A stretch of DNA of 64,000 nucleotides from an uncultured delta proteobacterium (GTDB lineage Bacteria > Desulfobacterota > BSN033 > UBA1163). The position numbers and the translations under genes were made by a program. Under the pieces are notes generated by a model. It was not told the DNA's origin, made no database searches, and saw nothing but the letters and a program-made list of their open reading frames with translations. The stretch is from NCBI GenBank assembly GCA_963820625.1, contig CAWGAV010000010.1:83915-147914 (forward strand), in the 5' to 3' direction. This document shows, in pieces, positions 41,758 to 61,196 of this stretch; the stretch's first letter is position 1, and the number at the start of each line of letters is the position of its first letter.

Positions 41758-42678
41758 CTAAAATCTGAAATTTAAATTGAGCTTTTTATAAAGAAGACCG
41801 TATCTCACTCCATGGCAACTGATTAAGACAGAGTGACATTCGAGTTCCTCCATCGCCAGATAAAGGATCGCCCCTCCAGCTAAAATGACATCGGCCCTGG
41901 CAATGGGAAGACCGGGTATTTTTTTCCTCTCCTCAACGGTTTTAGATCGGTAAAGGAATAATTGGTTTCGCAAGGCTTCCTTTTTTAAAAGAAAATGGTG
42001 AATCTTTTCAGGTATAAATTCCTCCAAGCCTTGTTCAACAGAGGCTAAGGTCGTGGCCGTCCCCCCAACCGCTACCATTGATAATGGTTCCTGTGAATGA
42101 GGGATGTTGACAATTAATTCCCGAATTTTCCTCTCCATCTTCCCCCATTCTTCTTCTTGAACAGGATCTGATCGTAAAAACTGCTCTGTAAAACGGACTG
42201 ATCCGAGCGGGAGGCTTACCCATTGACTGATCTGACCGCCTTTGCCAAGGATGAATTCCGTGCTTCCTCCGCCTACATCGACCACAAGAATAGGTTCTTT
42301 TAGCTCCCCGAGGTCCTTCGCCACAGCTAAAAAGGAGAGTTGGGCTTCCTCTTCTCCAGAGATGACCTCAATGGAGAAGTTGAGTTTTTCTTTGACCAAT
42401 TTTAGGAAATCCTCGGAGTTTTTGGCTTCCCGGAGGGCACTTGTCCCCACTGCAAAGATTTTTTGAACCTCCGTCTCCTGACACCATTTCAAATATTGAG
42501 CCAATGTTTGAAGGCCTCTATCCATAGCCTCTATTAAAAGGAGTCCATTTTTTTGAACCCCCTCACCCAATCGAGCAACGGTTTCTATTTCCAAAAGGGG
42601 ATGAATTTCCCCTCCCTCCACCTTTGCAATGAGGAGAAGGATCGTGTTGGTCCCGATGTCGATGGAGGCAACCCTCAA
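41758..42678 (-). CDS. ppx: Ppx/GppA exopolyphosphatase; current start codon supplied by the integrated element
   Basis: ASIDIGTNT, RLGEG, TSALREA, GEEEA, DVGGGSTE, GGTATT, RADVI; TTG at 42678 (or 42717). Confidence 0.9.
   Translation of the reverse strand: MRVASIDIGTNTILLLIAKVEGGEIHPLLEIETVARLGEGVQKNGLLLIEAMDRGLQTLAQYLKWCQETEVQKIFAVGTSALREAKNSEDFLKLVKEKLNFSIEVISGEEEAQLSFLAVAKDLGELKEPILVVDVGGGSTEFILGKGGQISQWVSLPLGSVRFTEQFLRSDPVQEEEWGKMERKIRELIVNIPHSQEPLSMVAVGGTATTLASVEQGLEEFIPEKIHHFLLKKEALRNQLFLYRSKTVEERKKIPGLPIARADVILAGGAILYLAMEELECHSVLISCHGVRYGLLYKKLNLNFRF
42656..42676. repeat. att core, integrase-proximal copy
   Basis: ATGTCGATGGAGGCAACCCTC, identical to 61176-61196. Confidence 0.93.
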
Positions 42679-42703
42679 TATTTCTACCTTTAATTTTAAG
42701 TGG

Positions 42704-43753
42704 TTAGAGATTAGCAACGTTCGACTGTGCTATTTTTGTGCTATTCGACTGATCTAATCCCTCAACCGCATGGCGCAAGCTTTCAACATTGTGGTGAACA
42801 TACCGTGATGTCATCATCAATGTCTTGTGCCCCATCAACGCCTTGATTGTGAGTGCGTCCATTCCCTTTTGACTTAACCTCGTTCCAAAACTATGGCGTA
42901 AGTCATGGAAGTGTAAATCTTCTATCCCTGCCTTTTTGACACATTTGGGGAAGGCTCTCTCCAATGCCTGATTGAAGAGTTTGGATTTGGACAGTGGTGA
43001 ATGGAAGACCCACTCGCAGCCAATCACTCTGACCTTTCCCATCTCCTTAAGAAGACAATAAAGGGTCTCATTCATCGGAATCGTTCTCTTCTCGCCATTC
43101 TTTGATTCCATCACGATGATTGCTCTTCTCGGAAAGTCGACAGCCTTCCAAGAAAGATTAAGGATCTCCCCTCTGCGCATACCTGTATTCAATGCAAACA
43201 CAACGATCCTTCTCAACCATAATGGCGAACAAGCCAGTAGATTTGTTTCTTCCTCCACAGTTATCCAACGATCCCTTTTTGTGCTCCCCTTTTCTTGCTT
43301 GATAGAAGCCACTGGATTATGGTTTAACCAACGACATTCAGTTGCTAAACTAAACGCTCTCTTGAAAGCTGCAAGGTCGCGATTGATCGTTGCAGGTTTG
43401 CATCCTCTTTTTTCCCTTCTGTCCCTGAACTCTTCCCATAACCCGGACTCAATTTCAGAAAGCAAGTACTCACCGAAGAACTGCTTTAAGACCTTGGCAC
43501 TTGAGATATAAGCCTTCGATCTACAATTTTTTACGGAGTAACTGATTAACAGGTCCATAAGCTCATTGAAGGTCTTAGATTCACCGGGCGACTTCTCAAA
43601 CCATTTCCCTTCTGCAACCTCACCTTTCACCTTGTCCAAAATCCTTTGAGCTAATTTCCGATCATTTATCTCTGTCGATTTCCGATAATGCTTTCCCCGA
43701 CAGGTAAAACTCATCCACCAAACCGAGCCTCTTTTAAAAAGCCCCATTATCAA
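42704..43753 (-). CDS. Tyrosine integrase
   Basis: N-terminal arm-binding region (KRGSVWW...RKST), TGMRRGEI, SKNG, HDLRH, LMGH, TSRY; catalytic set intact. Confidence 0.95.
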   Translation of the reverse strand: MIMGLFKRGSVWWMSFTCRGKHYRKSTEINDRKLAQRILDKVKGEVAEGKWFEKSPGESKTFNELMDLLISYSVKNCRSKAYISSAKVLKQFFGEYLLSEIESGLWEEFRDRREKRGCKPATINRDLAAFKRAFSLATECRWLNHNPVASIKQEKGSTKRDRWITVEEETNLLACSPLWLRRIVVFALNTGMRRGEILNLSWKAVDFPRRAIIVMESKNGEKRTIPMNETLYCLLKEMGKVRVIGCEWVFHSPLSKSKLFNQALERAFPKCVKKAGIEDLHFHDLRHSFGTRLSQKGMDALTIKALMGHKTLMMTSRYVHHNVESLRHAVEGLDQSNSTKIAQSNVANL

Positions 43754-43774
43754 TCACCTTCCTTTCTGAGGCCC

Positions 43775-44095
43775 CTAATTCTTCAGTTTGGTTCTCCCAT
43801 GATCGGGAGTATACGCTAAGTTCTTTACCTGTTCAACAGATTTTTTCACGACCTGGTCAATATCTAAACCATTCTTTTTTGTAACTCTTAAAATGGCCTT
43901 AGCTCTCTGGTTCACCCCTTCGGTATCTTGCCTGTGGTTTTCTACCCATGCTTCAATATCTCCCTGCCGAAACCGCACCAACCTGCCAAATTTGTAGCAT
44001 GGGATCTCTCTTGCTTCCACTTTGCTGTACAACGTGGCTGGTTTGATGTGGAGGTATTCAGAAACCTCCTGAATGGTCAAAAAATTGCTATCCAT
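43775..44095 (-). CDS. Excisionase/AlpA-type HTH protein
   Basis: LTIQEVSEYLHIKPATLY...IPCYKFGRLVRF..DIEAW; next to the integrase. Confidence 0.88.
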   Translation of the reverse strand: MDSNFLTIQEVSEYLHIKPATLYSKVEAREIPCYKFGRLVRFRQGDIEAWVENHRQDTEGVNQRAKAILRVTKKNGLDIDQVVKKSVEQVKNLAYTPDHGRTKLKN

Positions 44096-44360
44096 AGGCT
44101 CTTTCTTGAATTTGGATGGTTTGGGATAGGGTTGAACCGATCTCTCGTCCTACGATTGATTTTCCATACTCAAGTTTGAGTTTCAAGGGAAAAATAGGGG
44201 ATCTACGACCTCCGATTCCTTTCCGGGCTGGATTTCTTCCCAAACGATAGGTGAAGAGGACACATTCTATCGCTTGACAGGTTCTTACTTCCTTTTTGGA
44301 TCCAGCACATTCAATGCACTTTTCGCGGATTGCCCTTAATGGAGTCAAGCTTCTTTGCAT
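44088..44360 (-). CDS. Phage-type Cys-rich small protein
   Basis: AIREKCIECAGS..EV..C....CVLFTYRLG, a pattern common in phage hypotheticals. Confidence 0.7.
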   Translation of the reverse strand: MQRSLTPLRAIREKCIECAGSKKEVRTCQAIECVLFTYRLGRNPARKGIGGRRSPIFPLKLKLEYGKSIVGREIGSTLSQTIQIQERAYG

Positions 44361-44515
44361 AACCTAAAACTTCCATTTACCAAATCTCTTCGTTCAAGAA
44401 CCTGACAACAAATCTAAACCATGAAACGGGGTCCCATAGCCCCAGGTGCCTAATCCCGGGGCCATGGGCTAACAACCCGTAAGAATAGAGGTCGCCCCGC
44501 ATTGTCTTGTTTCTT

Positions 44516-44686
44516 CTATTGACCCTTGGCCCGATAAATTCCTTCAACCTGCCTCTCTTCAAAGGCCGTTATTTTTTCGGGTTGTTCAATCTTACCCCTG
44601 ACCCGCTCAATAATTTTTTTTTCAAGTTTGTTAAACCTCTTACCATCAAGCCCGGATAAGACCCAATCTAACCTATCTTTTCTCAT
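44516..44686 (-). CDS. 56-aa hypothetical (MRKDRLDWVL...YRAKGQ)
   Basis: Hand-translated; ATGA overlap with the stop of 44683-45033. Confidence 0.55.
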   Translation of the reverse strand: MRKDRLDWVLSGLDGKRFNKLEKKIIERVRGKIEQPEKITAFEERQVEGIYRAKGQ

Positions 44687-45033
44687 CCCTTCGTCTTGCC
44701 TCTGTTAAATGTATTCTTTAGAGAAGCTACGCATTGCATCAGTGGCGTAACGAGAGATTTTTCGATTTCTTCAACTAACAGTCTGCATCCCTCACCAGTT
44801 TCTTTAAGCCTTAATCTGATGTGTGCCAAATTTTTGATTACCTTCCGGACCTGTTTTATTAATGGTTTTGAAAAATTTGAATCAATTTCAGAATACCGTT
44901 TTTCTATTTTGTTAAGACCCTCGCATGTAAGTTTGATCTCGGATTGATACGTCTTAAGAGCCTCAGCCCCCTTTGTCAAATGCGAAATCACATGTTCAAT
45001 ATCTTCAAATTCCGCAAATAAATTTGTCTCCAT
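44683..45033 (-). CDS. Helical/coiled-coil hypothetical protein
   Basis: GGAGG RBS directly after the TMP stop; heptad-like pattern. Confidence 0.6.
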   Translation of the reverse strand: METNLFAEFEDIEHVISHLTKGAEALKTYQSEIKLTCEGLNKIEKRYSEIDSNFSKPLIKQVRKVIKNLAHIRLRLKETGEGCRLLVEEIEKSLVTPLMQCVASLKNTFNRGKTKG

Positions 45034-45045
45034 CCCGACCTCCGT

Positions 45046-48000
45046 TTATCGATCCACTAAAAGTGTTTTGCGCATTTCGGCGTTTCTGTTATAGTTTGAA
45101 CAAACTGGATTAATAATAAGATTCGGGTTATCGGCAATACCTTGAGCCAAGACATCGGTGGGATCTAAAATATTCATAATCCTGATCTCGATAGGTTGCT
45201 TTTCTTTCTTTTCCGGCATCTGTCCGGTCTGGTTCATATAGTCCAAGCGTTCCCGTCCGATACTTTGAGCCGCTTCTCTTCTCAGTACATATTCATTGCT
45301 TAGAAGTTTGGCTATTACCTCATCACGCCGTAAACCACCCTCATGCATTTTAACAACAGGACCGCCAGTATGGATTTTCATGGCTGGTCCCAAAACGCTG
45401 CCTGGCGAAAGATCAATCTGGGGAATAGAAGGACTAAAAAGATTTGCAATAACCTTAAATATTGAACCTAATAAACCAGTCGAACCCCCTGAAGAACTTT
45501 TGATCCGCAGCATTCCTTTCAAGTAGTCCATCACCATTGTCGCCATCATATCCGACCATGTTTTAGCAATGGCATTGGCAAAAGACTGGAAGTAATCTTT
45601 GAAACTTTTTAATTGGCCAGTTAGAAGATCACTAAAAACAGTAGAGATGGTAGTTTCAACACTCTTCAACCAATCCAACATAACTTTTTTACCATCGTCA
45701 AATTTTGCTTTAATCTTGTCCCAATACTCCGTCCAACCAGCGGCCATTCCCTCCCATATACTTAACTGTGAATCCTCAAATCTTCTCGCTTCCTGATTGG
45801 CCTTACTTACACTGTCGGTTAATTTATCGAAGTCCTGCCGTAATTGAGATAGGGCGGCCTCTACTTCGGGACTTTCTTTCATCCCCTCCAGAAGTTCAAT
45901 TCTATATGCAATAACTTTTTTAGTTGCCTCATCCATACTGATAGCAACCAGATCAAGTCGGTATTTCAGATATTTCCCGTATTCAGATCCTCTTTCAGCA
46001 TCCGACATGGCATCATATTCATCCTGAAGGGCTTTTCTTTCTTCTCTTAAATATCGAGTATCTTTCTCGATTTTTGTCTTCATTTCTATGTCTGTACCCT
46101 TAAGAACAATATCAGTCCGTTTCCGTTGCCCCTCCAATGTGATAGCGTCCATTTTAGTTTTAAAGATTGTAATAAGAGCATCCATATCAGCATTAAGGTC
46201 TTTTTCGGCTTCCGGTCCCAACCCCTCATACTGTTTGAGTATGGTATGTATCTGTGTAGCAAGATCCTCATTTGCTTTTAGGATAGCAAGATTCGTCAGT
46301 TCATCCTGTGCCAATAATTTGTCATCCATATCCTTGGCAGTATCTAATTGAGCCTTGCCCAATTCCTCCATGGCTTGGATTTGACGGATACGTCTTTGTT
46401 CACTCAAGTTATCCAGTTTTTCATCATACACCTTGTTTCTCTCAATCTCTTCTTGTTTCAGCTTGTCAATGCCACTGAAGTATTTATTCCGTGCCTGATC
46501 CTGTAAGTTCTTCCCCTCGGCTGGCGTGTATTTACCCGTACCAACCTCTAAGCGAATCCTCTCCATCTCCTTTTGCCATTCAATCAGTTCAAGGAGCATT
46601 TTGGTATTGGTTTCTTTTTGGATTCGTAACCTCATATTGGCTTCACGACCATCCAGGGCCAGAGTGTCTCGTAAACCCGCCTCTTCAATTTTTAGTTCTT
46701 CCTGCACTATCGCATAGGCTGCTTTGGCCCTAAATGCCCGCATTTCTCTGTCATAGTCTTCCTGTACTTTGGCCCTACCCTTGGCAGCTTCTGCGGCAGC
46801 CAGTTTTCCCGCTTCGGTATCCGCATAACCCTTCTCTGGAAATTTTTGCATACCCTCTTGGTATTTAAGTTTTATCTTTTCCTCTTCATCTGCTAATGCC
46901 TTCCGCATCTCAAAGAGATAAGTCCGCATCGCACCGAGGCGAGCCTTCATGTTTTCCTCGACCGTTTGTGCAGCAGCATCCTGTTCTTCCTGGAGGGCCT
47001 GTCTTAATGCTCGTGCGGCACGTTGAATATCTTCTGTTTTCCAGTTTTTTCCAGTCAGGGTATCCCAAAGGACCTCTTCGGCTGTACGAGCCTCATCCCC
47101 CATTCCCTTGAACGATCTCCCAACATCATTAATCGATTGTTGAACTTTAAGAAGAGATTCTCTATGTGAAAGTTCCGCGTCTTTTGCTTTTTTTGCCCCT
47201 GCTTCAGCCTGCCAAGCCAACTCGGGATTCTGAGACAACTCACCAAACTGCGCTTGCAAGCGAATCGATTCTTTTACTTTTTCGTTCAAACTATCGAATT
47301 GATCCAACATCACTTTGAGGCGGTCAATCTTCAGGTCTTGAATCTTTTTGTATATTTCGTCAATTTCGGTAATGACCCTTGCTTTAAATTCAGTATGTGT
47401 CATTCCGACTTGATTAACCATACTCCTTAAATCCTTATATTCCCCACTTAAATTATTAACAGCATCCTTGATCTCGGTCTCTCCAGTTTTGACATTGTTT
47501 AGTTTGATCCGAAGACTTTCTAACTCTTGCACCTGTTGAGCATAGAGCATGACTTCCTTATCAATGGTTTTAATATGGTCCTCATGGGAAGTATGTAAAG
47601 CATCAATGGAGAGTTTGACGGCAGTAAAGGCAACCGCAAGTATACTAAGTGCCGCTATAATAGGATGTGCCTGTAACCAAACCAATGCTAAACCAAATCG
47701 AGTAGCTGCAGTAGTTAGTAAATCAAAATGGTTCACTAACAAAATCATTCCACCAATGACACCACCACCTATAAAAACCGGCCAAAGCGTTTTAAACGTT
47801 TCTACCAATCCACCAACGCCCTTAAGAAGTAGATTGAAAGACGGAATAACTATGTCACTAATACTCAACGCCATATCTAAGAGTCTTGTTTTAAAAATAT
47901 GCAGTTGGTTCATCGGGCCTTCCATGGCCCGTTCATTCATCACCAACATCGCATTAGTGCCAGTTAGAGCATCGGTCATACGTTGCAGGGCTGCGGGTCC

Positions 48001-50496
48001 CATGTCTTTTAAAGATGCGAAGACACCAGCTTGGCGTTTCTCCAGACCTTCAAAGATAGAAGTAAGATCAAAACCTTTTTTCTCAAGTAGGCCCAGAATG
48101 TCAATAAGGTTGTGCCCGGGCATACGGATATCTTCAAAATCAACCTTAATCGCATCCAGTTGTTTCAGGAAATTTGCACTTGGAGCAATCAACTGTCCAA
48201 GGATGCCCCTTAATCCTGTTCCTATCGTGGAAGCTCTAAGACCAGCATTACTCAAAACTGCCAGTGTCGCCGCCGTCTGCTCGATACTCATCCCGACCTG
48301 TTTTGCGGTAGCAGCCACATAGTTAAAGGAGGTAGCAAGGTCATTAATCTCCAATTTGGAGTAGTTCAAAGCCGCAGCGAGTACGTTGCCAATACGGGTT
48401 GATTCTTGAGCCGATAACTTCCAAACGTTCATAGCAGTTGTCAAAACCTTAACAGCCTCTTGAGAACTTGCCCCTGTAGATGTTACAAGCATTGCTACAG
48501 TCTTTAGGGCTTCAGCCGACTCCTTAGCGGTAAGACCAGCCTGACCTAAGATTTTAAGGGCATCAGCAGCCTCAATAAAGCCCATCTTGGTCGAAGTAGC
48601 AACATCCCGTGCTGCCTTTTCCAATATCTTCATATCGCCAGCAGAGGCATTAGTAATAGCCCCCACGTCTATAATGGCTTGACTGAACTTGAACATAGTG
48701 CCGATCGCTTCACTAAATGCCTGCTGGATCTTAAAGACCGTGCCAAAGATTAAGGCCCCGCCAAGTAACCACGCCATTTGGGATTTCAACATATCCGTAA
48801 AGCCAGCACCCCATCTATCCATGGCACGTGCGGCATCAGCTGACCGTTTCGTAAACTGAGTGGCCTGAAACTGAACGACACCCAAAGACTCTCCGGTAGA
48901 CTTCATGGCAGCATTCATCTCTGCCGTGGCTTTGCCTGTTATGGCAAACTCTTGCCGAATGAGTTTCATCCGCTCGGTCAGCAAAGCCTGTAATTTCTCT
49001 AACTCCAAGGTACCCAATCCCAACTGTTTCAGACTCTTTCTGTTAAGTTCTATCCCGCCAGTGAACTGGTTGATCTCTGCATTGGTCTTGGCAAGTCCCG
49101 TCTGAAGTGCCTGTAACTGAACCGTCTCTCCCTGCTTCGCCAGTTCTTTTAATCGTGCCGTTAGGCCATAGATAGCCTGATCGAAGTCTTTTACATTGGT
49201 AGCCGGAAGACCTTTGGCTTGTAGTACTTCAGCTTCCTTCATGGCCTTTCCGGTCTTTTCGATATCGCCACGAAGTTTATCCCAATCCTGTGCCATCTCC
49301 CGAGCAACAGACTGAGACCCTAACCGAGCAATCCTACTGGTCAGATCGGTAATTTCAGAGTTTATGGTTTGGGCAATACTCGATAGGCGTGTAAATTCGT
49401 CGGGGTTGAGGAAAGCCTTAATCTGTATAGTTTGTAATTTCTGTTGGAACTGTGAGACTACCGTACCAGCAAGTTGAATCTTTCCGATCAGGGCATCCCA
49501 TTCGCCACCACCGCCCCCGAGGCCACCTGTACCTCCTGCACCAGTAACCTCAGAGGATTTAATCTTTTCGTACTGGTCCGCAATCTGTTTGGTAATGGCA
49601 AGGATTTTCTCTTTATCACTAATAGAAGAAAGGATAATGTCTTTTATTGATTGCTCATCCTTGACAATTTTACCAAGGATGGTATCAAGTTCTTGGTTTA
49701 GAACTTTTCTCCCCTCTTCGGTCTTTATGAGTTCGTCAAGGTACTGCTTCATGGACTGAAGTTTCTTTTCGTCAACACCTTCAGCCAGTAGTCCACGGCT
49801 TAATAGTTCTTTTGTAATACCGACAAATTCAGCTACCTTCTCCCGGGCAACAGTTTCTTCCCTTACCCTTTGTGCTATTAGTTCAGATGTGGCTAAACGG
49901 GCTTGCTCAAAGGCTCCCATCTGACCGATTAGGCCGACCATCTGCTGATAGACAGCACGTTGTTGGTCAAGATATCCGGTAATCTTTGCCTGGCGTTCAG
50001 CTTGAACTACTTCTTGGGGGGCTGTTTGTTCAGTGGTTAAATCAATGGCTCTTTTTGCTTCGGGAAATACACCCTTAGCAGTCATTTTACCCCAGTCCAC
50101 AACCGGATTCTCACCAGCCCTTAATTGAGAAATCCATCCTTCAAGTTTTGTAAATTCGGCCTTGAGTTTTGTAATCTGTCCACTAATCTCCGAATTCATC
50201 TTCTCAAATTCGGCTACAGACTTAGTACGGGCATCTTTGAAGGTGCCTACGAGTTTCTCGGAGATTCCAGTGGTGTCAAAGGCTCTGGCTAAGTTAAGAA
50301 CTGGTGTATCAGACACCATCTTGTAAAAACTGGCAACGGTGACGGCAAGTCCTTTGAAGACATTCTGGATTTGCAAAAGGGCGGGTTTGAATTTTTCTTG
50401 GAACTGCTTAATCGAATCTTCTACATTTTTCCCGAAGTCAGAATTTATCTTACTGACGAATTGTATGCCAAGTTGTTCTATAACGGTATCACCCAT
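45046..50496 (-). CDS. Phage tail tape-measure protein (TP901-like core, lambda-like C-terminus), ~1816 aa
   Basis: Long helical protein; core AARDVATSTKMG..EAADALKILGQAGL...LSNAGLRASTIGTGLR; hydrophobic segments; C-terminal LTGQLKSFKDYFQS and HTGG...HEGG..DEV..L...EYVL; AAGGAG RBS favours start 50496 (track gives 50514). Confidence 0.9.
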   Translation of the reverse strand: MGDTVIEQLGIQFVSKINSDFGKNVEDSIKQFQEKFKPALLQIQNVFKGLAVTVASFYKMVSDTPVLNLARAFDTTGISEKLVGTFKDARTKSVAEFEKMNSEISGQITKLKAEFTKLEGWISQLRAGENPVVDWGKMTAKGVFPEAKRAIDLTTEQTAPQEVVQAERQAKITGYLDQQRAVYQQMVGLIGQMGAFEQARLATSELIAQRVREETVAREKVAEFVGITKELLSRGLLAEGVDEKKLQSMKQYLDELIKTEEGRKVLNQELDTILGKIVKDEQSIKDIILSSISDKEKILAITKQIADQYEKIKSSEVTGAGGTGGLGGGGGEWDALIGKIQLAGTVVSQFQQKLQTIQIKAFLNPDEFTRLSSIAQTINSEITDLTSRIARLGSQSVAREMAQDWDKLRGDIEKTGKAMKEAEVLQAKGLPATNVKDFDQAIYGLTARLKELAKQGETVQLQALQTGLAKTNAEINQFTGGIELNRKSLKQLGLGTLELEKLQALLTERMKLIRQEFAITGKATAEMNAAMKSTGESLGVVQFQATQFTKRSADAARAMDRWGAGFTDMLKSQMAWLLGGALIFGTVFKIQQAFSEAIGTMFKFSQAIIDVGAITNASAGDMKILEKAARDVATSTKMGFIEAADALKILGQAGLTAKESAEALKTVAMLVTSTGASSQEAVKVLTTAMNVWKLSAQESTRIGNVLAAALNYSKLEINDLATSFNYVAATAKQVGMSIEQTAATLAVLSNAGLRASTIGTGLRGILGQLIAPSANFLKQLDAIKVDFEDIRMPGHNLIDILGLLEKKGFDLTSIFEGLEKRQAGVFASLKDMGPAALQRMTDALTGTNAMLVMNERAMEGPMNQLHIFKTRLLDMALSISDIVIPSFNLLLKGVGGLVETFKTLWPVFIGGGVIGGMILLVNHFDLLTTAATRFGLALVWLQAHPIIAALSILAVAFTAVKLSIDALHTSHEDHIKTIDKEVMLYAQQVQELESLRIKLNNVKTGETEIKDAVNNLSGEYKDLRSMVNQVGMTHTEFKARVITEIDEIYKKIQDLKIDRLKVMLDQFDSLNEKVKESIRLQAQFGELSQNPELAWQAEAGAKKAKDAELSHRESLLKVQQSINDVGRSFKGMGDEARTAEEVLWDTLTGKNWKTEDIQRAARALRQALQEEQDAAAQTVEENMKARLGAMRTYLFEMRKALADEEEKIKLKYQEGMQKFPEKGYADTEAGKLAAAEAAKGRAKVQEDYDREMRAFRAKAAYAIVQEELKIEEAGLRDTLALDGREANMRLRIQKETNTKMLLELIEWQKEMERIRLEVGTGKYTPAEGKNLQDQARNKYFSGIDKLKQEEIERNKVYDEKLDNLSEQRRIRQIQAMEELGKAQLDTAKDMDDKLLAQDELTNLAILKANEDLATQIHTILKQYEGLGPEAEKDLNADMDALITIFKTKMDAITLEGQRKRTDIVLKGTDIEMKTKIEKDTRYLREERKALQDEYDAMSDAERGSEYGKYLKYRLDLVAISMDEATKKVIAYRIELLEGMKESPEVEAALSQLRQDFDKLTDSVSKANQEARRFEDSQLSIWEGMAAGWTEYWDKIKAKFDDGKKVMLDWLKSVETTISTVFSDLLTGQLKSFKDYFQSFANAIAKTWSDMMATMVMDYLKGMLRIKSSSGGSTGLLGSIFKVIANLFSPSIPQIDLSPGSVLGPAMKIHTGGPVVKMHEGGLRRDEVIAKLLSNEYVLRREAAQSIGRERLDYMNQTGQMPEKKEKQPIEIRIMNILDPTDVLAQGIADNPNLIINPVCSNYNRNAEMRKTLLVDR

Positions 50497-50677
50497 TAAC
50501 TGTTCTCCTTCCATGCTCCAAGAATTTTATATTCCGCCTTGTCAATCCGTTTAATACCTTTAGCCTCAATCCGCATCGATATCGCTTTCGTTATTGCCTA
50601 ATTCCTGATTATTTTGGTAATATTGCTTTAGATATCGCATAGATTATGCAGCCCCAAAAAATACCAAGGAGAAAAGA

Positions 50678-51151: not shown

Positions 51152-51172
51152 AGTTCCCTGAGACCCCCAGAC

Positions 51173-51460: not shown

Positions 51461-51462
51461 TT

Positions 51463-53214: not shown

Positions 53215-53508
53215 CTATTTTCTCCATTTCCTTCTCATAGGCAAACAGGACCGCAACATCGATCCTTTGCTTCTGTTCAGAAGGAATTGTCAAAACTCCT
53301 TTGTATTTTATTTCGCCCGTTGAGGGGTCCTTCCAGGATACTTGGGGGGAGACACGAATGCCCGCCCTCCGTTTTGCTTGATTACCCTGAAGTCTCGAAC
53401 AATCCAGTCTCCGGCCTGAATATCGGCAAATGCACGGATAGACCTATTGTTTTGGATTAAACGGATTTCAAGAACCCTGATTGGTTGAAAGATTGAATCG
53501 TGGGACAC
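53192..53508 (-). pseudogene. SpoVG-like nucleic-acid-binding protein, frameshifted at a C6 run
   Basis: IRAFADI...VRDFRVI...FVSPP, then in the shifted frame QVSWKDPSTGEIKYKGVL...IDVAVLFAYE; shift at 53344-53349. Confidence 0.7.
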
Positions 53509-53618
53509 GGACGACCCTTCTTAGACCCTTGGATTCGCGAGCCATCCGTGGTATGGGTAGGCAGTAAGCGAGGATAATTATTGAACCGCCTCTTTGTGGA
53601 GGTAGGTTATTTTCTAAG

Positions 53619-53759
53619 CTATTTAGGGAAACGTTTCTTGAAAACTATGGTTTTTTCCTTATCCCTCTTTAAAGAATTACCTTTCTTGGGAGAAGAGGAA
53701 CCATTCACCGGGGTTAGCTTTATTTCGATTTCAACATCAAAATACTTAGTTGCTGCCAT
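53619..53759 (-). CDS. 46-aa basic hypothetical (MAATKYFDVEIEIKL...KKRFPK)
   Basis: Hand-translated; strong AGGAGGTGA RBS. Confidence 0.5.
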   Translation of the reverse strand: MAATKYFDVEIEIKLTPVNGSSSPKKGNSLKRDKEKTIVFKKRFPK

Positions 53760-53837
53760 ATCACCTCCTGTCGGGTATTAAACACCGCTCATTTCTATAG
53801 GAAATAAGGGGCCTAAAACACCGCCATCCCTATCTTG

Positions 53838-54590
53838 TCAACACCGTTCCTCAAGCAGAGAGGAGATAAAAGGATCGGAACACCGCCGTTTTATTTCTCC
53901 TTCCAGTAACCGTTGAATACGGTCTTCATTCTTTTTTAACCATCCAACGCGTCTTTCTACCGTCCTTTTGGGTATGCATAACTTCTCCGAAATGGTTTGG
54001 GCAGAAATCTTAACCGGTCTATGCTTAATAAGAAGCTTAAAAACGTCTGCGGTATATTTCCCGCCTTCATTGTCAATCATTTCTCGAATCTTCGGATCTT
54101 TCTCAATTAAATCGATTTCGTGCAAAACCACGTAATCCCAATCTTCGGGAGACGGTTTCATCTCGTCTTCATAATCGTGTGATGGTATGAATCTTATTTT
54201 TTGAGATAGCAGTTTGTCTGAGGGCAAACGAACCTTGGTCTTGATTTGCAGTTCCCATTCGGTATCTTTCAACTTCTCCACAAATTTGTCTGGGTCTCCC
54301 CCATAAGTAAATTCTTTCCCCCTATGCTTCCTTTCTCTCCATATTGCTCTTTCGGCTACTGTTATAATTTTTTCCCATTCTCCCTTAATTGCTTCGATTG
54401 CTTCTGGACTTTCAATATTTACATGCTTTTTGGGTAAAACCTCATCTATCGCCTCCATAAAAAAATAGCCTAAATCATCCGGTCTTTCCTTGACTCTCTT
54501 TGCCTTTAAACACTTCTTAAAATGGTTTAAAAGATCGGGAAAGGTATTGATCTCCTGAAAAGTTTTTTCTTTATCCCCGTGTTCTGTCAT
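53838..54590 (-). CDS. Hypothetical protein with C-terminal HTH (candidate element regulator)
   Basis: ISAQTISEKLCIPKRTVERRV; heads the leftward core run. Confidence 0.6.
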   Translation of the reverse strand: MTEHGDKEKTFQEINTFPDLLNHFKKCLKAKRVKERPDDLGYFFMEAIDEVLPKKHVNIESPEAIEAIKGEWEKIITVAERAIWRERKHRGKEFTYGGDPDKFVEKLKDTEWELQIKTKVRLPSDKLLSQKIRFIPSHDYEDEMKPSPEDWDYVVLHEIDLIEKDPKIREMIDNEGGKYTADVFKLLIKHRPVKISAQTISEKLCIPKRTVERRVGWLKKNEDRIQRLLEGEIKRRCSDPFISSLLEERC

Positions 54591-54704
54591 ATTGATCCCT
54601 CACCTGTATACTCCGTTATATTCATAATTCCCCATTCCATATCACTTTCCTTGTGCAAAATTTGATTCAATTTCCAAAATCAATACCGATTTTCTTCATT
54701 CCCA

Positions 54705-54869
54705 ATAAAAAAGCCCAGCCAAGAGGGATAGAACCATTTGCTCCTCCCTCGCAACTGGGGCATTTAGCGCGTTCGTGCCTTAGCTATGCCCGCAACTCAA
54801 GTCCTTTCGGGCTGAGAAGCCTGTTTTCAGGCTTGTAAATCTTATATCAAGGAAACCGGTTTTTGTCAA
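54705..54869 (-). ncRNA. Candidate structured leader/small RNA with promoter and terminator
   Basis: TTGACA(54869-64)-N17-TATAAG; hairpins AAGCCTG-AAAA-CAGGCTT, CC-GAAA-GG, GGGCAT...ATGCCC; terminator CCCAG..GAGGGA/TCCCTC..CTGGG + T6. Confidence 0.5.
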
Positions 54870-55139
54870 GGTTTAAATAGCCCAAACCCGGAAACACCCA
54901 CTGGATAGCGATTTCCCGCTATTCCTCTCAGTCTCCGAAGAGCCTTTAATCGGATCTGCCTCAAAGACCCCTGACTGGTCCGAGAATTTCCGGTGCTTTC
55001 GTGAGTATATGGTGATTGCTACTTTGGCTAAAAGATGAATCAGCGATACGGATATTCAGAAATTAGAATCAAAACTGGCTGGCTCGAACAAACCGGAGGT
55101 ATATCGATTTACTGCGGGTATTTGAAAAAGATGTTTAAT

Positions 55140-55538
55140 CTACCGTTTCTCTTCTATCCATTCTTTCTCAGAAATATCAAAATCTGATAATCTGTCCCAT
55201 CTTATCTTATTCGACATCTTTTTTTGACAGCGATAACCAGCCTTTTTCATACATTCAATAAGGCATTTTTGATAGGTAGTTGCGATACTACCAGCGGTGA
55301 GGTTCGTGCCAAGTCCAACAAATGGAATCCAAACAGTAGAATCTTGAACAATTTTCCAAGCATTCACTCTTTTATGAGCAATTTCCACTTCCGGGGTCTT
55401 TTCGCATTGAGATAGAGCCTCCTCAATTTCTTCCTTGGTTGTTGGGATGTTTGAACCTTCGTGTTGCCATACTCGTGCATAGGCACATCCACTCATAAGA
55501 ACCAACCCTACCAGTAAAACCAATGTCCAACGTTTCAT
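55140..55538 (-). CDS. Hypothetical lipoprotein
   Basis: Lipobox MSGC; internal hydrophobic segment; C...CM...GY. Confidence 0.7.
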   Translation of the reverse strand: MKRWTLVLLVGLVLMSGCAYARVWQHEGSNIPTTKEEIEEALSQCEKTPEVEIAHKRVNAWKIVQDSTVWIPFVGLGTNLTAGSIATTYQKCLIECMKKAGYRCQKKMSNKIRWDRLSDFDISEKEWIEEKR

Positions 55539-56046
55539 GGGTTTGCCCCCCCCTGCTTACACTATACACCCTTAGCTTTCCTTCGGTCTATCTAATATTT
55601 CCATAATTGTGGAAAACGGAAAAATCGGATTGAGACTCAACAGTTGAACGGTTCAAATTTCAGCAGGAAAGCCAGGTCTACGTTTGTAGACCAACTCCTT
55701 ACATTTGTCCACCCCAGGATGCACAGGATGAGCCAGGAGGGGAGATCGACTAATAGGACAGGGGGAAGAAAAGGGTTCAAGCTGGATCTGGATAACGGGG
55801 GGGTGCCTGTCACCTCAATAGTACACCTACAAGTCAACAAGAATGAGGTATACTAATAGACAATGATTACGGGATGAAGTTGAGCATACCATCCGCCGTG
55901 ACCGCCGCGCGCTCGCCACCCTAAGAAAAGGACTGCTTACACGCGCGGCGGAGTTAACCGAATGCTTAGAGTTCGCCATTTGCTGACTACAAAGGTCGAG
56001 GCTGACCCGCTCGCAGCGACTGTGCGGCCGAAACGCTGTTGTCGCC

Positions 56047-56454
56047 CTATTTCTTTATCCAGTCGTACAGTGGCTTACCTTTGTCAACGATGTGAACCGT
56101 AAAGAGCTTGATTGTCTTGTCTCCGACGACGGTAAATCCGCCATGTTCTACATCTCGAAGAGCCATGATCGGCGCTCCAGTGGGCATCGCAAATGGCGGT
56201 TTCCCCGGCACCTCCACCATGCCCCCCTCCAGAACGTATGCTGTCTCAATGCCGTGATGAATATGCAAGGGAAGTTGGTCGCCGGGCTTCATTTCTACCA
56301 CCGAAAGCACCACCTCCATTCCGGGCGCACCAGATAGATCAGCCCGCTTCAATTCTTTGCGGCCGGCATAGTCCTGTGCCCACAATGAGGCACCGATGGC
56401 CATCGTCAAGGCAACAAAAGCTGAACAGATCATTGCGCGTCGAATCGATTTCAT
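56047..56454 (-). CDS. Exported cupin-domain protein
   Basis: AAGGAGG RBS before MKSIRR; signal peptide; LHIHHGIETAYVLEG...EHGG...VDKGKPL. Confidence 0.8.
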   Translation of the reverse strand: MKSIRRAMICSAFVALTMAIGASLWAQDYAGRKELKRADLSGAPGMEVVLSVVEMKPGDQLPLHIHHGIETAYVLEGGMVEVPGKPPFAMPTGAPIMALRDVEHGGFTVVGDKTIKLFTVHIVDKGKPLYDWIKK

Positions 56455-57080
56455 AGTTTCCTCCTTTGACATAACCATCCCCTTCTCTTGGGTATCCAGA
56501 AACATTATTCTTCTTGAGAAATAAGCAATCATTGAAAGTGTTAAAAGCCTCCAAAGGGACATAATCTCCCTTGGAGGCTCCATATCGGCATCTTTTGGAA
56601 ACCCCATTTCATGCTACACTCCAAAAGGTTAGAAGTTAAGCTGATAGTTGGCTTTAAAAAACGATATGGTAAATATGTACTAATTCTAATTGAATAAGTC
56701 AACAAGAATTATCGATTACCATTCGAAAGGTGGTATGGAAGCACGACTTTGAACAATCACTCTTTCAGGAAGGAAGTATCGGCGCTGTTTTGTTGAGATA
56801 GGCTTTAGAATTCACTTTTTTTCATTTCCATAAAAAAAGGATTTGGAGGATATGAAAAAATAAAAGAGTGGACTGCCCTCCGAGGTCGGACATTCTGTCT
56901 CGAAGATTCAAACGGGTGGGGTAGCGATCGGTGCTTTACTTTTAGTCAACGAATTTTCTCTTGCAGGGTTGATATCATTGATAAAAATAAGATTGAAGTA
57001 GGAAAACCATTTACTATTAGTAAATAATTTTTTTTGTAAGGAGCTTCCCGAGCTGGGAAACTCCAAGGTAAGGGTGGGAT

Positions 57081-57524
57081 TTAAGCAGGTTGGGGTATCG
57101 AGGGGTTTACTTCTTTCAGTTGTGATACCGAGGAATCAGGTTTCTTTTGGATTGGCAGGATCTGGAATACACCGCTTTCTTGGATCAAGTCCTTGACTTC
57201 CTCAATCGTTTTTAATGCGTCCGTTTGTTTTTGGTCAATCTCGAACATCGAGAGGAGCGCAACTGCAACAGCAAAACATCTGCGCCGCAGTTCCATAACG
57301 TAGTTATAAACTTGATCCAAACCTATCACTCCCGGATCTTCGGGGTCCGTCTCTGGTATCGGGAGAATTGCCTCCAGGAGGGCATCCATACGGCTTCCTT
57401 CAATATATTCAGTATCCCGATCAAACAACTCCATCACCTTTTCCCATTGGATTTCTTTCTCTCTTCCACCGAGATTTTTTTTAATCTCCTCAATTGTTTC
57501 TATCCTTGCAAAGTCGGTATCCAT
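57081..57524 (-). CDS. Acidic hypothetical protein
   Basis: AAGGAGG RBS; 147-aa ORF. Confidence 0.6.
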   Translation of the reverse strand: MDTDFARIETIEEIKKNLGGREKEIQWEKVMELFDRDTEYIEGSRMDALLEAILPIPETDPEDPGVIGLDQVYNYVMELRRRCFAVAVALLSMFEIDQKQTDALKTIEEVKDLIQESGVFQILPIQKKPDSSVSQLKEVNPSIPQPA

Positions 57525-57587
57525 GGTATTCCTCCTTTTGTGCTGTCAGCACTGATAAGGTTCACATCCTAATTACCTCAACACCCA

Positions 57588-57752
57588 TTACTTCTTTGTG
57601 GTTTTATCTGCCCCGCATCCATACTGATCGAAAATTACTCCTTGGCAATTTGGCATCAACTCAAAGACCATGGTGATTACGCAAAAGGAAGAATGTTCAC
57701 AATCCTCACAATTTCCCGCCTTGACCACTACCTTCTTGCTATCCCCCGCCAT
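57588..57752 (-). CDS. Small Cys-rich hypothetical protein
   Basis: CEDCEHSSFC...C...C; purine-rich RBS. Confidence 0.4.
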   Translation of the reverse strand: MAGDSKKVVVKAGNCEDCEHSSFCVITMVFELMPNCQGVIFDQYGCGADKTTKK

Positions 57753-57856
57753 AATTTCCCCCTTTCTGCCATTGGGCAAGTTCTAAAAATTAACGATGTG
57801 ACACCTTTTCACCCCCGCCTTTTTTATCACCCCCTTTTTGTCCATAAAACAAGTGT

Positions 57857-58489
57857 CTACTGGACAACCGTTTCTACGTGTTCGAGCCCTGATTTATCAA
57901 GGCTTACAGCGCAATGATTTTGAAGGGATTTATGGACGATCGATTTTGTTAAGTTCATCTTCTTAGCAATTTGTCGAATACTTGCCCTTTCCCTTCTTAG
58001 TGCGATAAGTTGTTCTGTGTCCACCTCTACCGATGGCCTTCCCAGTTTCACACCCTTGGCCCGGGCATTGGCAATACCAGCAAGGACCCGCTCTTTAATT
58101 AGATCGGCCTCAAGTTCGGCTATGGCTGAAGTGATCGTGAACATGGCCTTGCCCATTGGAGAGCTTGTATCAATATTCTCTTTGTAAGAGATGAAGTCTA
58201 TACCAAGGTGTTTAAACTCCTCCAATGCTGTCACGAGGTGTTTTGTAGAGCGAGCGAACCTGTCAAATCTCCAGACCAACACTACACCAAAACGTTTTTT
58301 TCTGGCATCATTCATTAACAGATCCAGGGAGGGCCTTTTATCTTTCCTTCCAGAAACGCCAGAATCCACGTATTCCTTAAAAATATCTATCCCCATGGCT
58401 TGGGTATAGGACCTCAAATCTCTTAGCTGCATTTCGACATCCTGACCCTTCCCATTAGTTGAGACCCGTGCATAGATGGCAGCCCTCAT
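57857..58489 (-). CDS. Serine recombinase (resolvase/invertase family)
   Basis: YARVST, SG...RP, DRFARS, E..LIKER, GRP, C-terminal HTH. Confidence 0.93.
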   Translation of the reverse strand: MRAAIYARVSTNGKGQDVEMQLRDLRSYTQAMGIDIFKEYVDSGVSGRKDKRPSLDLLMNDARKKRFGVVLVWRFDRFARSTKHLVTALEEFKHLGIDFISYKENIDTSSPMGKAMFTITSAIAELEADLIKERVLAGIANARAKGVKLGRPSVEVDTEQLIALRRERASIRQIAKKMNLTKSIVHKSLQNHCAVSLDKSGLEHVETVVQ

Positions 58490-58632
58490 TTCTTCTCACC
58501 GCCCTTTCTTGTTTTTTTGAGATACCCTTCCAAGGCTCGAATAATCACGTCTTTTAGATCTATTCCCTCCTCGATTGCTCGATGCTTTGCCGTCTTCCAT
58601 AAATCATCAGGAATATCAACGGAAGTTTTCAT
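58486..58632 (-). CDS. 48-aa ribbon-helix-helix (CopG/ParG-like) protein
   Basis: MKTSVDIPDDLWKTAKHRAIEEGIDLKDVIIRALEGYL; ATGA-coupled to the resolvase. Confidence 0.75.
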   Translation of the reverse strand: MKTSVDIPDDLWKTAKHRAIEEGIDLKDVIIRALEGYLKKTRKGGEKK

Positions 58633-58646
58633 GGCTACACCCCTAA

Positions 58647-58699
58647 ATATCTAAGCATTTAGATATCTCCATTCTCTTAAATTTAGAAATTTTTGTCAA
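58647..58699 (-). promoter_or_regulatory. Promoter and palindromic operator of the RHH-resolvase operon
   Basis: TTGACA(58699-94)-N17-GAGAAT; palindrome ATATCTAA-GCAT-TTAGATAT at 58647-58666. Confidence 0.6.
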
Positions 58700-59255
58700 G
58701 AAAAAAATGAGGTTGTGAAAAGAATCATTTTCGGAAGAGGGGAGAGGAAGCAGAAGTATAAAAAATATGATTTAAAATCGGGTAGTTATTAAGTAAACTT
58801 AATGTAAAATATCAAGTTAAAACATAACTCATTTGAAAAGTTTGCATAGCAGAGATATTTAATTGTATTTTAATTATCAATTTGTTTTCACAAGGTTAGG
58901 TATTTTTTTCGATTGTGAGGGGCTTTCACAAGGGGAGGGTAAGGAGTAAGGTAGGCGTCGCCTATGATTGGAGCCGGGCAAGAAGAGTATTTCCCTCTTA
59001 AATCTACAAACAAAATGTCCAAGATAGGAGAAGGTTTTTAAAACTTTACTTGTTTTGTTTTTTCACCTCTTCAAAAACAATTACAGGAGATTGGTATCGT
59101 TTGATTGAAACCTTTTCCCGGTTTTTGAGGGGCCTCAATTCAAATCAGGACAGTACCGTTTTTGTGTGGTGCTCCATCAGGGGTTTGTTGATTCACCAGA
59201 AAGGGCGGTGAAGGCGACAATCATTAGTGAATTTAGAAAGGGAAATGCCTAATCG

Positions 59256-59702
59256 TTATGGTTTGCTTAGCCCTGTTATGCCAATTTGGTTTAGGCTGGT
59301 ATAAATATCGAACCTTATTTTGGGAGAATAATGTGGCGATTTCAAAACTCCCTTGTAAATCAGCTTCATAGTCTCTTTTTTTAATTCACCCTTAATTTCA
59401 ATGTCTTTATCTGCCTCTAATGATTTCTGCCATTCCGGAAATGGTGGTTCGTCAAAATCAAGAAGACAGTCTGCATCAAAGCAGGGATAGTTTTTCCTTT
59501 CAAATTTTAAGTGATTATGAGAAACCCGATTTCCTCCGGGCTTGAAATCATCCATTGAGGTGGTTGTCGTGCAAAAATGGACAATGATTGGGTTTGACAG
59601 TATCCCTGTGTCGCCCAAGTAAATAAACCATCTTGGTTTTATTTCGCTATCAATTCTCGGATATGGGAAATTATTCCACTTAAATACAGTTCCAGGTTTC
59701 AA
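59256..59702 (-). CDS. Putative toxin (PemK/MazF-like N-terminal pattern)
   Basis: PGTVF...FPY....KPRWFIYL...CTTTT; TTG start overlaps the antitoxin TGA. Confidence 0.55.
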   Translation of the reverse strand: MKPGTVFKWNNFPYPRIDSEIKPRWFIYLGDTGILSNPIIVHFCTTTTSMDDFKPGGNRVSHNHLKFERKNYPCFDADCLLDFDEPPFPEWQKSLEADKDIEIKGELKKETMKLIYKGVLKSPHYSPKIRFDIYTSLNQIGITGLSKP

Positions 59703-60265
59703 TGAGAGGCTTCTTCAAGAGATTTGTAAATAAGGTAATGTTCTTCTGAAGGAGTTAATTCTTTTTCGCCCTTATAGGTAATATCCCCTGGAAATTGGTC
59801 ATCATAATCAATAATACCGTTCTTCTCTCTCCTCCAAGTTTCTTTCCAAGCACGTATATCCTCGTGACTGGCTTCACTTATATCGGATGCCTTAACAAAT
59901 ACGTCAGCAAAAATCTCAATGAGCCGACGCATTTTTTGAATTTCGTAAGAAGAAAAATACTCCAAACTCGGATGGCCTTTTGGCATAATTATAAACTTGT
60001 CGTCTTCCAATTCCTTAAACTCGAAGCAGTCGGTCTTTAAGCCCTTTCTTTTATTATATATCTCAATTGGAACTGGTCCCCTTTCCATTGCTTTATATTT
60101 CAAGCCCAATACTGGTTGTCCAGTATCACTTAAACTTTCAAAGTCGAGAAAAGCAAGATATTTGTACAGAAATGTCTGGTGGAGAGGCTTCTTTGTTCTT
60201 TTTGCATGTTCCGCCGCAAAATAACAAATGGCGTTTTTAATTTTTTCTTCTCGGTATGCTATCAT
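59699..60265 (-). CDS. Panacea-domain (DUF4065/SocA/GepA) antitoxin
   Basis: KIKNAICYF...LYKYLAFLDF....GQPVLGLKYKAMERGPVP...SH...W. Confidence 0.8.
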   Translation of the reverse strand: MIAYREEKIKNAICYFAAEHAKRTKKPLHQTFLYKYLAFLDFESLSDTGQPVLGLKYKAMERGPVPIEIYNKRKGLKTDCFEFKELEDDKFIIMPKGHPSLEYFSSYEIQKMRRLIEIFADVFVKASDISEASHEDIRAWKETWRREKNGIIDYDDQFPGDITYKGEKELTPSEEHYLIYKSLEEASH

Positions 60266-60538
60266 GGTTTTTCGGTAGTGGGTTATTTTCGCTGTTGGAA
60301 TACCAGAAATTGGAATTCTTGTCAATAGCAAATTCCAATCTCCAGAAAAATAGTAACATCGAAGAAGACCTAAAACAATAGGGTGCTACCCTGCTTTTGA
60401 TAATAGAAGCAAGGTATATGCCATAGGGATGAGATATAACCAAAAATAAAAATTATATTTAAAATTCAGTAAGTTATATTAGCTCCAAATCAACGGAACC
60501 TAAGAGAGATTAGAAAAAAAATGGTAACAATTTACCAT

Positions 60539-61012
60539 TTATGTCCAATTTTTGTCATAATTCACCATTGATTCGGTTTGATCGACATCCTTACCACAGG
60601 CCCCACAAATCCCGTAAAAATTAAATTGATGATCAACGACCTTATATCCCGTAGATTCCCTCACCTCTTTCATCCAACCAGCAATATTGCAAAAACTCAC
60701 TTCGGCCACATTCCCACATTTCTTACACGCGATATGGTGATGGTGCCTTTCTATCTTACAAAGTTGATATTTCGTCTCGGGACCGTTGTTGATTTTAAAA
60801 ACAAGGGATAGCGATTCAAAGAGTTTGAGACTTAGGCAAACAGAATTCAAAGAAATCTTCTTCAATCCTCGCCTTCTCAAAAGCTTCCCGTATAACCCTT
60901 TGGGGGTAACCGGGCCATGGGCATCAGTAAGTTCTCTATAGATCCAAAGCCTAGCCTGAGTTATGCCGTGTCCCTTCTTCTTAAGGGTTTCCCTAAAATA
61001 TCTTGCATCCAT
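60539..61012 (-). CDS. Fur-family transcriptional regulator (element-borne)
   Basis: ITQAR, HHHIACKKCG, HQFNFYGICGAC. Confidence 0.82.
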   Translation of the reverse strand: MDARYFRETLKKKGHGITQARLWIYRELTDAHGPVTPKGLYGKLLRRRGLKKISLNSVCLSLKLFESLSLVFKINNGPETKYQLCKIERHHHHIACKKCGNVAEVSFCNIAGWMKEVRESTGYKVVDHQFNFYGICGACGKDVDQTESMVNYDKNWT

Positions 61013-61175
61013 AAAGGCTCCCGCACTGTGCCAATTTTGTGACAGAATCAATCTAAAAGATCGTAATAGATAGAGTAGACCAGAATAGATCAAAAACCCT
61101 CTAACCCTTTATTTTCAAGCCTTACCGGGAGAACCAAGCCAGAATCAAGGGGTTAGAAAAAATGCCTGTTTTCGA

Positions 61176-61196
61176 ATGTCGATGGAGGCAACCCTC
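61176..61196. repeat. att core, integrase-distal copy
   Basis: Identical to 42656-42676; IHF-consensus AATCAAGGGGTTA at 61143-61155. Confidence 0.93.

Follow-up and report, generated by a model that had tools for sequence, protein, structure and literature searches.

An integrative island of an uncultured delta proteobacterium with a tail tape measure protein as its only recognisable virion gene

The island and its gene content

The 64,000-nucleotide stretch of DNA analysed here (the window), from the metagenome-assembled genome (MAG, 71% complete) of an uncultured delta proteobacterium, carries at positions 42656-61196 an integrative, replicative island in which the gene for a tail tape measure protein (TMP) is the only recognisable virion gene; that the element is a satellite of phages is something we infer from its gene content. 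Both island ends are formed by a perfect 21-nt direct repeat (42656-42676 and 61176-61196, spacing 18,520), a pair for which an arithmetic estimate gives a chance expectation of about 6e-5 in 24 kb. A first-pass annotation, made from the letters alone, had described an 18.5-kb element with perfect attachment (att) repeats, intact genes for an integrase, an excisionase and a primase/helicase, and an uninterrupted 1816-aa TMP, and all of this was confirmed (PF00589; HTH_17; PrimPol with PriCT_1 and a weak DnaB_C; PF10145, PHROG matches and a start at M7), as was, within Pfam and PHROG scans, its failure to recognise any other virion gene. Its description of the TMP as co-oriented between the replication genes and xis-int holds for the orientation, since TMP, int, xis and PrimPol are all on the minus strand, but a 157-aa gene on the plus strand (50678-51151) intervenes. 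The island genes, nearly all of which lie on the minus strand, and the adjoining features are as follows, L009 and L058 being related islands that are described in the next section.

41758-42717, minus strand: host target gene ppx/gppA (Ppx/GppA; PF02541, 3.3e-63), whose first codons are provided by the island end
42656-42676, no strand: att copy on the integrase side, 21 nt, within the 5' end (first codons) of ppx; perfect match to 61176-61196
42704-43753, minus strand: tyrosine integrase (PF00589, 7.5e-38), 68% identical to the L009 integrase
43775-44095, minus strand: xis, an excisionase-type HTH_17 protein (PF12728, 1.5e-14; PHROG excisionase families)
44088-44360, minus strand: 90-aa Cys-rich small protein (open reading frame, ORF; no Pfam, PHROG or PADLOC match)
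44683-45033, minus strand: o116, a 116-aa TMP-linked protein, beginning 13 nt downstream of the TMP stop
45046-50496, minus strand: TMP, 1816 aa (PF10145, 1e-33); the ORF reaches 50514 (1822 aa)
50678-51151, plus strand: 157-aa protein with a hydrophobic N-terminal stretch and a strong AAGGAG ribosome-binding site (no Pfam, PHROG or PADLOC match)
51173-51460, minus strand: 95-aa protein with two CxxC pairs, zinc-ribbon-like by eye (ORF; no family match)
51463-53214, minus strand: PrimPol-PriCT-helicase replication protein (PF09250, 4.3e-35; PF08708, PriCT_1; weak PF03796, DnaB_C)
53308-53508, minus strand: SpoVG-like small protein (PF04026, 9.5e-5, weak and below cut-off)
53838-54590, minus strand: 250-aa protein with a C-terminal helix-turn-helix (HTH), probable regulator (weak HTH_11)
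55140-58489, minus strand: cargo, namely a 132-aa protein, a cupin (Cupin_2, 1.2e-5), a 147-aa protein and a serine resolvase/invertase (57857-58489; Resolvase, 7.4e-46)
59256-60331, minus strand: probable toxin-antitoxin pair, a SocA/Panacea-domain protein (59699-60331; PF13274, 1.7e-12) and a partner of 148 aa (59256-59702)
60539-61093, minus strand: Fur-family regulator, cargo (PF01475, 5.9e-19)
61024-61196, no strand: distal island end, about 150 nt conserved with L058, ending in the att copy at 61176-61196

The statement that the TMP stands alone rests on scans of 21 island reading frames (the 50.6-51.15 kb region being taken twice, once per strand), all 21 against PHROGs, 18 against Pfam and 10 with PADLOC. 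In the 21 frames no capsid, portal, terminase, tube, baseplate or lysis family was matched at E<=0.01, bar one non-significant small-terminase match (E 0.0084), an absence that holds within the sensitivity of profile hidden Markov models, about eight of the small island ORFs having no family match. Neither a small terminase nor capsid-size genes were detected in the island, and Psu, Sid, Delta and Eps, whose genes accompany a primase in P4-like satellites, had no Pfam or PHROG match there, although such proteins are small and poorly conserved, so that their absence carries little weight.

Several of the smaller genes deserve a brief comment in their own right. The plus-strand 157-aa gene is wedged between the replication genes and the TMP, a position that would suit a moron or exclusion gene. 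The 148-aa gene overlaps the SocA/Panacea antitoxin-like gene by 4 nt and matches no family, which makes it a candidate new partner toxin for Panacea, and the 250-aa HTH protein has phage and bacterial HTH proteins (GerE, Sigma70_r4) as its ESM Atlas neighbours. Outside the island the window is ordinary chromosome, encoding multihaem cytochromes, COX1, PFK, PdxJ and an FtsH-type protease, with no tRNA anywhere in its 64 kb; the host gene on the island's other side is a 340-aa ORF without a Pfam match.

Related islands and the ppx integration site

Judged by gene order and protein identity, a 23-kb metagenome contig, L009, holds a second island of the same layout at the same ppx site, in the order PrimPol, three small ORFs, TMP, a 121-aa ORF, small ORFs, xis, int and ppx. 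Identities to the window proteins are 44-46% for PrimPol (a protein with 971 relatives at E<=1e-40), 42% for the TMP, 37% for xis, 68% for the integrase and 78% for ppx. The contig stops short of the far att, and next to its related integrase, where ppx begins, it has an att-like motif with two mismatches to the window repeat, a match found in 0/100 shuffled controls. As a separate observation on this contig, two of the small ORFs upstream of its TMP (L009:8919-9329 and L009:9574-9939) are paralogues (27% over 79 aa, E 5e-8), and between them lies a 78-aa HTH_8 protein with a non-significant match to a small-terminase PHROG (E 0.0084).

The small gene o116, directly downstream of the window TMP, belongs to a rare family, with four matches in 1.84e9 representatives and eight relatives in a word-indexed search of 5.8e9 proteins. 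In L009 its positional equivalent is the 121-aa ORF directly after the TMP, which aligns with o116 along its length and is weakly similar to it (27% over 37 aa, E 0.012 in a small database). A small helical protein of this kind, always directly downstream of the TMP in the islands, is likely to be part of the module. Its predicted fold is a generic helical hairpin (pLDDT 87) that had no Foldseek match at E<=0.001 in BFVD or PDB, an uninformative result.

A closer homologue of o116, P0246 (90% identical), and the TMP P0003 (63% identical to the window TMP) come from the same source and both lie on a 15,614-bp contig, and together they probably represent a third island. The search for further islands of this layout that the first-pass annotation had proposed has yielded L009, at the same att site, and probably one more. 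When the window TMP and P0003 are compared per 100 aa, identity is 54-96% over the first ~1,000 residues and 26-68% over the C-terminal ~800; because the C-terminal halves have diverged while the adjoining o116 is 90% identical, this suggests that the C-terminal half of the TMP was exchanged while the backbone around it stayed conserved. A further candidate, an 18,249-bp contig with P0001, was considered as an excised circle and dropped, since only the C-terminus of its protein is missing and an ordinary chromosomal contig fits equally well.

The 5' end of ppx is itself an integration hot spot. Integrases adjoining ppx in two related genomes are 84% (G457) and 75% (G012) identical to that of the window, and in G012 a different island occupies the space between the same two host genes that flank the window island. 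The islands concerned, L058 (G457:C5) and L059 (G012:C28:548500-568400), have related integrases, serine resolvases 49-52% identical to that of the window and no TMP; across L009, L058 and L059, xis is 37-49% identical to the window protein, and ppx adjoining L009 and L058 is 78-81% identical. The distal end of the window island also aligns with L058 (89% over 169 nt by blastn). Because L058 and L059 carry other loads, the int-xis backbone is a general island vehicle, of which TMP and PrimPol are one particular load. Those other loads differ from each other, with RepO and DnaB in one and an AAA_25 ATPase and a 1005-aa surface protein (matrixin and InlB-repeat domains) in the other. An unoccupied site may be seen in run X3, where one contig of a related organism joins 42669 to 61204 and skips 18,534 bases; this is modest evidence, being a single contig whose shorter side is 30 letters. 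Runs X1-X4 were covered in small shares, as contigs, and stretches lacking cover carry no information.

Phage relatives of the tape measure protein

The identity of the TMP is clear from its profile matches, PF10145 (PhageMin_Tail) covering residues 632-820 with 117.3 bits against a cut-off of 33.2 and the ORF matching 23 PHROG families, of which 17 carry a tape measure annotation. The start is most likely M7, giving 1816 aa, because this codon is preceded by an AAGGAG box and is where both the family consensus and the gene call of another assembly begin. A search of 5.8e9 proteins returned 155 matches at E<=0.001, among which 11 relatives (P0002-P0012) cover at least 58% of the query at BLASTP identities of 38-68%; 10 of the 11 are 1811-1848 aa long, and the N-terminal ~1,000 residues are strongly conserved across the family. 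Close relatives are lacking among cultured phages, where 919 INPHARED records match the TMP, all at less than 60% identity and over no more than 31% of the query. The TMP was not found in 60 relatives, and 400 genomes of the phylum gave a single weak match to its core domain (G225); an initial scan of genome contigs likewise returned no relative.

Genomic context was read for five loci in IMG/VR and nine in JGI metagenomes, several of these being the same contigs. Full-length collinear homologues of the TMP, at 38-69% identity, sit in phage tail modules, and the same module order recurs in five types of phage contig (L002/L003/L008, L004, L005, L006 and L007): a major head gene upstream, two small genes in the position of tail chaperones, the TMP, and minor-tail and J-like central fibre genes downstream. 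The two chaperone-position genes (154-174 aa and 59-72 aa) are conserved in L004, L006, L007, L002 and L008. By this gene order the TMP family belongs to uncultured siphoviruses with lambda-like tail modules and tips. The window gene is full-length and collinear like other TP901-1-type TMPs of PF10145, but it lies outside any tail module.

One of these loci, L006, is part of a complete phage genome (G063, 76,274 bp, 127-bp terminal overlap, CheckV complete). Compared with four islands by blastp (E<=0.01), it shares the TMP only, bar distant tyrosine recombinases and one weak helicase match; it is without an island-type PrimPol, and its integrases are only distant. The first-pass annotation had considered that close relatives might be full prophages, with deletion scars around the TMP in this copy, and the 76-kb phage, with neither the island PrimPol nor a close integrase, does not bear this out.

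The TMPs of the islands are not each other's closest relatives, the window and L009 proteins being 42% identical while the nearest phage TMPs are at 69% (window and L007) and 89% (L009 and L004). In a quick maximum-likelihood tree, from which nine duplicate or partial rows were omitted (P0001, P0002, P0006, P0007, P0008, L008, L010, L005 and P0011), L009 is sister to phage L004 with a support of 100, and the window TMP stands next to L007 in a starred clade. At the DNA level L009 and L004 are 89% identical over 5,514 nt, in an alignment that begins 27 nt into the ORF; the homology ends exactly at the TMP stop codon and fades near the start, with flanks that share none. More generally, the TMP gene is the only part of the islands with homology to phage contigs, and nothing resembling a pseudogene fragment of an adjoining tail gene was seen. 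In 200-codon blocks along the L009-L004 pair dS varies between 0.08 and 1.15, a mosaic that indicates recombination with phage copies. The dN/dS ratio, which the first-pass annotation had suggested estimating, is 0.17 (L009 and L004) and 0.20 (window and L007), so that evolution of the TMP is not neutral.

The boundary at which L009-L004 homology fades is also the position of an HNH endonuclease gene in the phage (L004:9096-10016, also in L005), which lies directly upstream of the TMP, overlaps its start and matches 21 PHROG families, mostly HNH endonucleases (best 9e-21). A homing endonuclease at the TMP start could drive co-conversion of the TMP between co-resident genomes.

Such clear and repeated recombination with phage TMP genes also suits a different explanation, in which 5.4 kb of phage-like DNA would serve mainly as homology that lets the replicating island recombine into, or be co-packaged with, a phage and ride along with it, with the protein secondary. 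Phage homology is an established aid to plasmid transduction, and we recognised no packaging gene or site in the island. Homology alone, however, needs no gene-exact boundaries, no ribosome-binding site of its own, no intact frame and no constraint on amino acids, and an 18.5-kb insertion would, by our reasoning, overfill a 76-kb phage head; we regard this explanation as very unlikely.

The same mosaic of recombination with phage copies could accompany decay, with the TMP as the last structural gene of a degraded int-xis-PrimPol temperate phage, kept open by chance or by gene conversion from infecting phages. Relatives of the PrimPol protein, at 40-48% identity, occur widely in viral contigs and MAGs, several of the viral contigs appearing, by ORF sizes and order only, to have head genes a few kb downstream, and as the longest gene of a tail module the TMP would be the piece most likely to survive. 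Yet the profile of the TMP family matched none of 409 ORFs around 17 loci with PrimPol relatives and three other loci, and two, probably three, anciently diverged islands have retained the TMP alone out of the whole virion module, in the window as an uninterrupted 5.4-kb frame and under a dN/dS of 0.17-0.20. Decay is disfavoured because the boundaries are exact to the gene, with phage homology stopping at the stop codon, because no fragments of neighbouring tail genes remain and because the one complete phage of the TMP family is without such a backbone of PrimPol and integrase. A maintained function is also the simpler account, since decay would have had to strip all virion genes but the TMP two or three times independently, and we therefore consider a prophage remnant improbable.

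Two of the ways in which the first-pass annotation had suggested that the protein might act on a helper, by changing tail length and as a dominant-negative factor, are unsupported or weakened by comparison with the phage proteins. Tail length is not being changed, because island and phage TMPs are equal in length (1811-1848 aa). The window and L009 TMPs share nine positions private to the islands, within the 4-13 seen for control cross-clade pairs and hence no more than background; with no residues that set them apart, the island TMPs look like ordinary, functional phage TMPs. A related idea is that the island is not transduced at all and that its TMP, perhaps made in excess from the replicating island, disturbs the stoichiometry of tail assembly in a related phage and so protects the host population. 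The island TMPs are close enough to those of phages to enter their assembly pathway, other cargo of benefit to the host or addictive to it is aboard (the toxin-antitoxin pair, Fur, the cupin), islands with related integrases carry varied cargo, and tail assembly is a known target of defence in the available text on Rta (PMC12987554) and Tai (PMC11364771). Nothing in the nine shared positions marks the island TMPs as defective, however, no PADLOC family was matched among the 10 island proteins scanned, and a poison has no obvious need of full length, exact length conservation and purifying selection throughout. A role as defence cargo is, in our view, unlikely.

The host genome was also examined for a resident helper. 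No capsid, large terminase or tube protein was found in this 71%-complete genome, PF05065 and PF03354 being absent throughout; the head family phrog_3922 had no match either, a result without weight because its control also matched nothing. The profile phrog_31 gave only a repeat-like match (1e-5), and in a tblastn search with 159 phage proteins five TMP queries matched strongly and six other queries gave short or weak matches elsewhere. Three of these six fall on a single 330-aa ORF (G000:C23:76640-77632), the C-terminal ~115 aa of which are 29-32% identical to the product of the phages' third gene after the TMP (the gpK-position protein); as no other phage gene is nearby, the ORF probably encodes a host protein that has a domain in common with the phage one. 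Elsewhere in the genome a k-mer script found a small CRISPR-like array (G000:C34:86741-86990; four ~38-nt repeats and three spacers), and none of the three spacers matches any island or any phage locus fetched.

A satellite reading and its place among known systems

The island can be set beside several kinds of satellite. P4-like satellites and PICIs (chromosomal islands that phages induce) resemble it in having an integrase, an AlpA/Xis-type excisionase and a primase-helicase in 10-20 kb without capsid or tail genes of their own, and differ in that the window island carries a TMP. Capsid-forming PICIs (cf-PICIs) have their own capsid, portal, protease and connector genes, none of which was found in the window island. 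The PLEs (PICI-like elements) are closest in outline, being chromosomal islands with their own integrase and replication genes, no full virion module and their own TMP; their backbone, however, consists of a serine integrase and a RepA-type initiator, whereas that of the window island is a tyrosine integrase and a PrimPol protein.

Satellite-encoded TMPs as such are already in print, and the distinct satellite type proposed in the first-pass annotation is to that extent no longer distinct. In the available text on the PLE satellites of the Vibrio cholerae phage ICP1, these encode their own TMP, chaperone (TAC) and hub (BhuB), which are built with ICP1 parts into chimeric tails, and PLE11 further carries Rta, by which the TMP of the phage itself is blocked (PMC12987554). 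The PLE TMP is 20% identical to that of its helper and differs from it by 95 aa in length, and tmp genes are predicted outside Vibrio cholerae in PLE-like elements and some cf-PICIs (Extended Data Fig. 10; PMC12987554). The accessible part of a preprint on the EPIPs of Mycolicibacterium aichiense describes TMP-bearing satellites whose TMP is proposed to alter tail hijacking, with tails longer than those of the helper, and which also encode a small terminase, head-tail adaptor, stopper, scaffold, major capsid protein and serine integrase (PMC12822802). In the text available of these two sources no TMP is known from P4 or from PICIs (PMC12822802, PMC12987554), and the satellites in the portions available of two further reports (10.1101/2025.02.15.638363 and 10.64898/2026.08.12.739948) are without TMPs. 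A literature search, with supplements and figures outside its scope, turned up no published island in which a TMP is the only virion gene.

The window island resembles the integrase-bearing PLE-like elements and cf-PICIs in their predicted TMPs outside Vibrio cholerae, as far as these are described, and the EPIPs in being a TMP-carrying element; from EPIPs, as their preprint presents them, it differs in that the TMP is the sole virion gene found and equals the phage's in length, where an EPIP has head genes and longer tails. From PLEs it differs in that island TMPs are up to 89% identical to those of phages and equal to them in length, in place of 20% identity and 95 aa, and in that a PLE adds a chaperone and a hub, neither of which was found here. 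The helper of a PLE is a myovirus, whereas the candidate helpers here have lambda-like siphovirus tails and the host is an uncultured freshwater-sediment bacterium, and incorporation into tails is demonstrated for PLEs where the window element is known from its genes. What would thus set these islands apart from the published cases, as far as their sequences tell, is a TMP that comes alone, is near-identical to phage alleles, has the same length and has visibly been swapped with them.

The reading we favour, to which we give about an even chance, is that of a satellite-like island which places a TMP of its own, compatible with the helper, in hijacked tails and renews this TMP by recombination. 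Read from their domains, the integrase and excisionase would move the element into and out of the 5' end of ppx, and the PrimPol-helicase would replicate the excised circle. On infection, the chaperones, tube and tip proteins of the phage would accept the island TMP, and tails would then form around it, as shown for the PLE satellites of ICP1. The island would stay compatible with circulating phages by swapping all or part of its TMP gene through recombination, the C-terminal half being the part that would be exchanged most often. We entertain a more specific form of this reading only tentatively, as a possibility that is somewhat doubtful: minimal satellites would bring the TMP alone, as a swappable compatibility cassette kept matched to the helpers of the moment by exchanging the whole gene or its C-terminal half with phages in circulation, and o116, a conserved small partner, would direct tails or DNA entry to the benefit of the satellite.

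Several observations weigh against tail hijacking by this island. In the island the Pfam and PHROG scans revealed neither genes or sites for packaging nor a gene that might remodel capsids, and no tail chaperone or baseplate hub family was matched among the ORFs that flank the TMP, where a PLE has both. The contigs of public runs that hold the element attest its presence only, and no excised circle, attP junction, virion-fraction read or sign of transduction came to light; three different queries found no islands of this type in IMG/VR. The closest phage TMP to that of the window is only 69% identical, its helper is no more than a candidate, and the low dN/dS between islands and phages might owe something to selection that acted in phages before a recent transfer. 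The third island is assigned from equal contig size and source, not from sequence, and L058 and L059 show that related integrases serve ppx-site islands which have no TMP at all. As for a packaging site copied from a helper, outside the TMP the islands match none of the available phage contigs at the DNA level, a result that is not informative because the nearest of these contigs are fragments. On balance the interpretation offered in the first-pass annotation is partly upheld: an island with a lone TMP, its recurrence and the selection acting on the protein stand, and tail length, dominant-negative action and a distinct satellite type are unsupported or weakened.

Satellite-encoded TMPs were first demonstrated by experiment only in 2025-26, in a PLE. 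The islands described here would be a stripped-down natural case, in which no chaperone, hub, capsid or packaging gene has been recognised and TMP alleles are swapped within a conserved backbone, and they form a class that, as its absence from IMG/VR suggests, appears to be missed by current virus and satellite finders. The question of why satellites encode a TMP is thereby narrowed to the TMP itself, and the strategy would extend outside Vibrio to uncultured sediment bacteria and lambda-like siphoviruses. If the more specific form of our reading, with the TMP as a swappable cassette, is true, then of all tail components it is only for the TMP, which enters the next cell with the DNA, that it would matter to a phage parasite who owns it.

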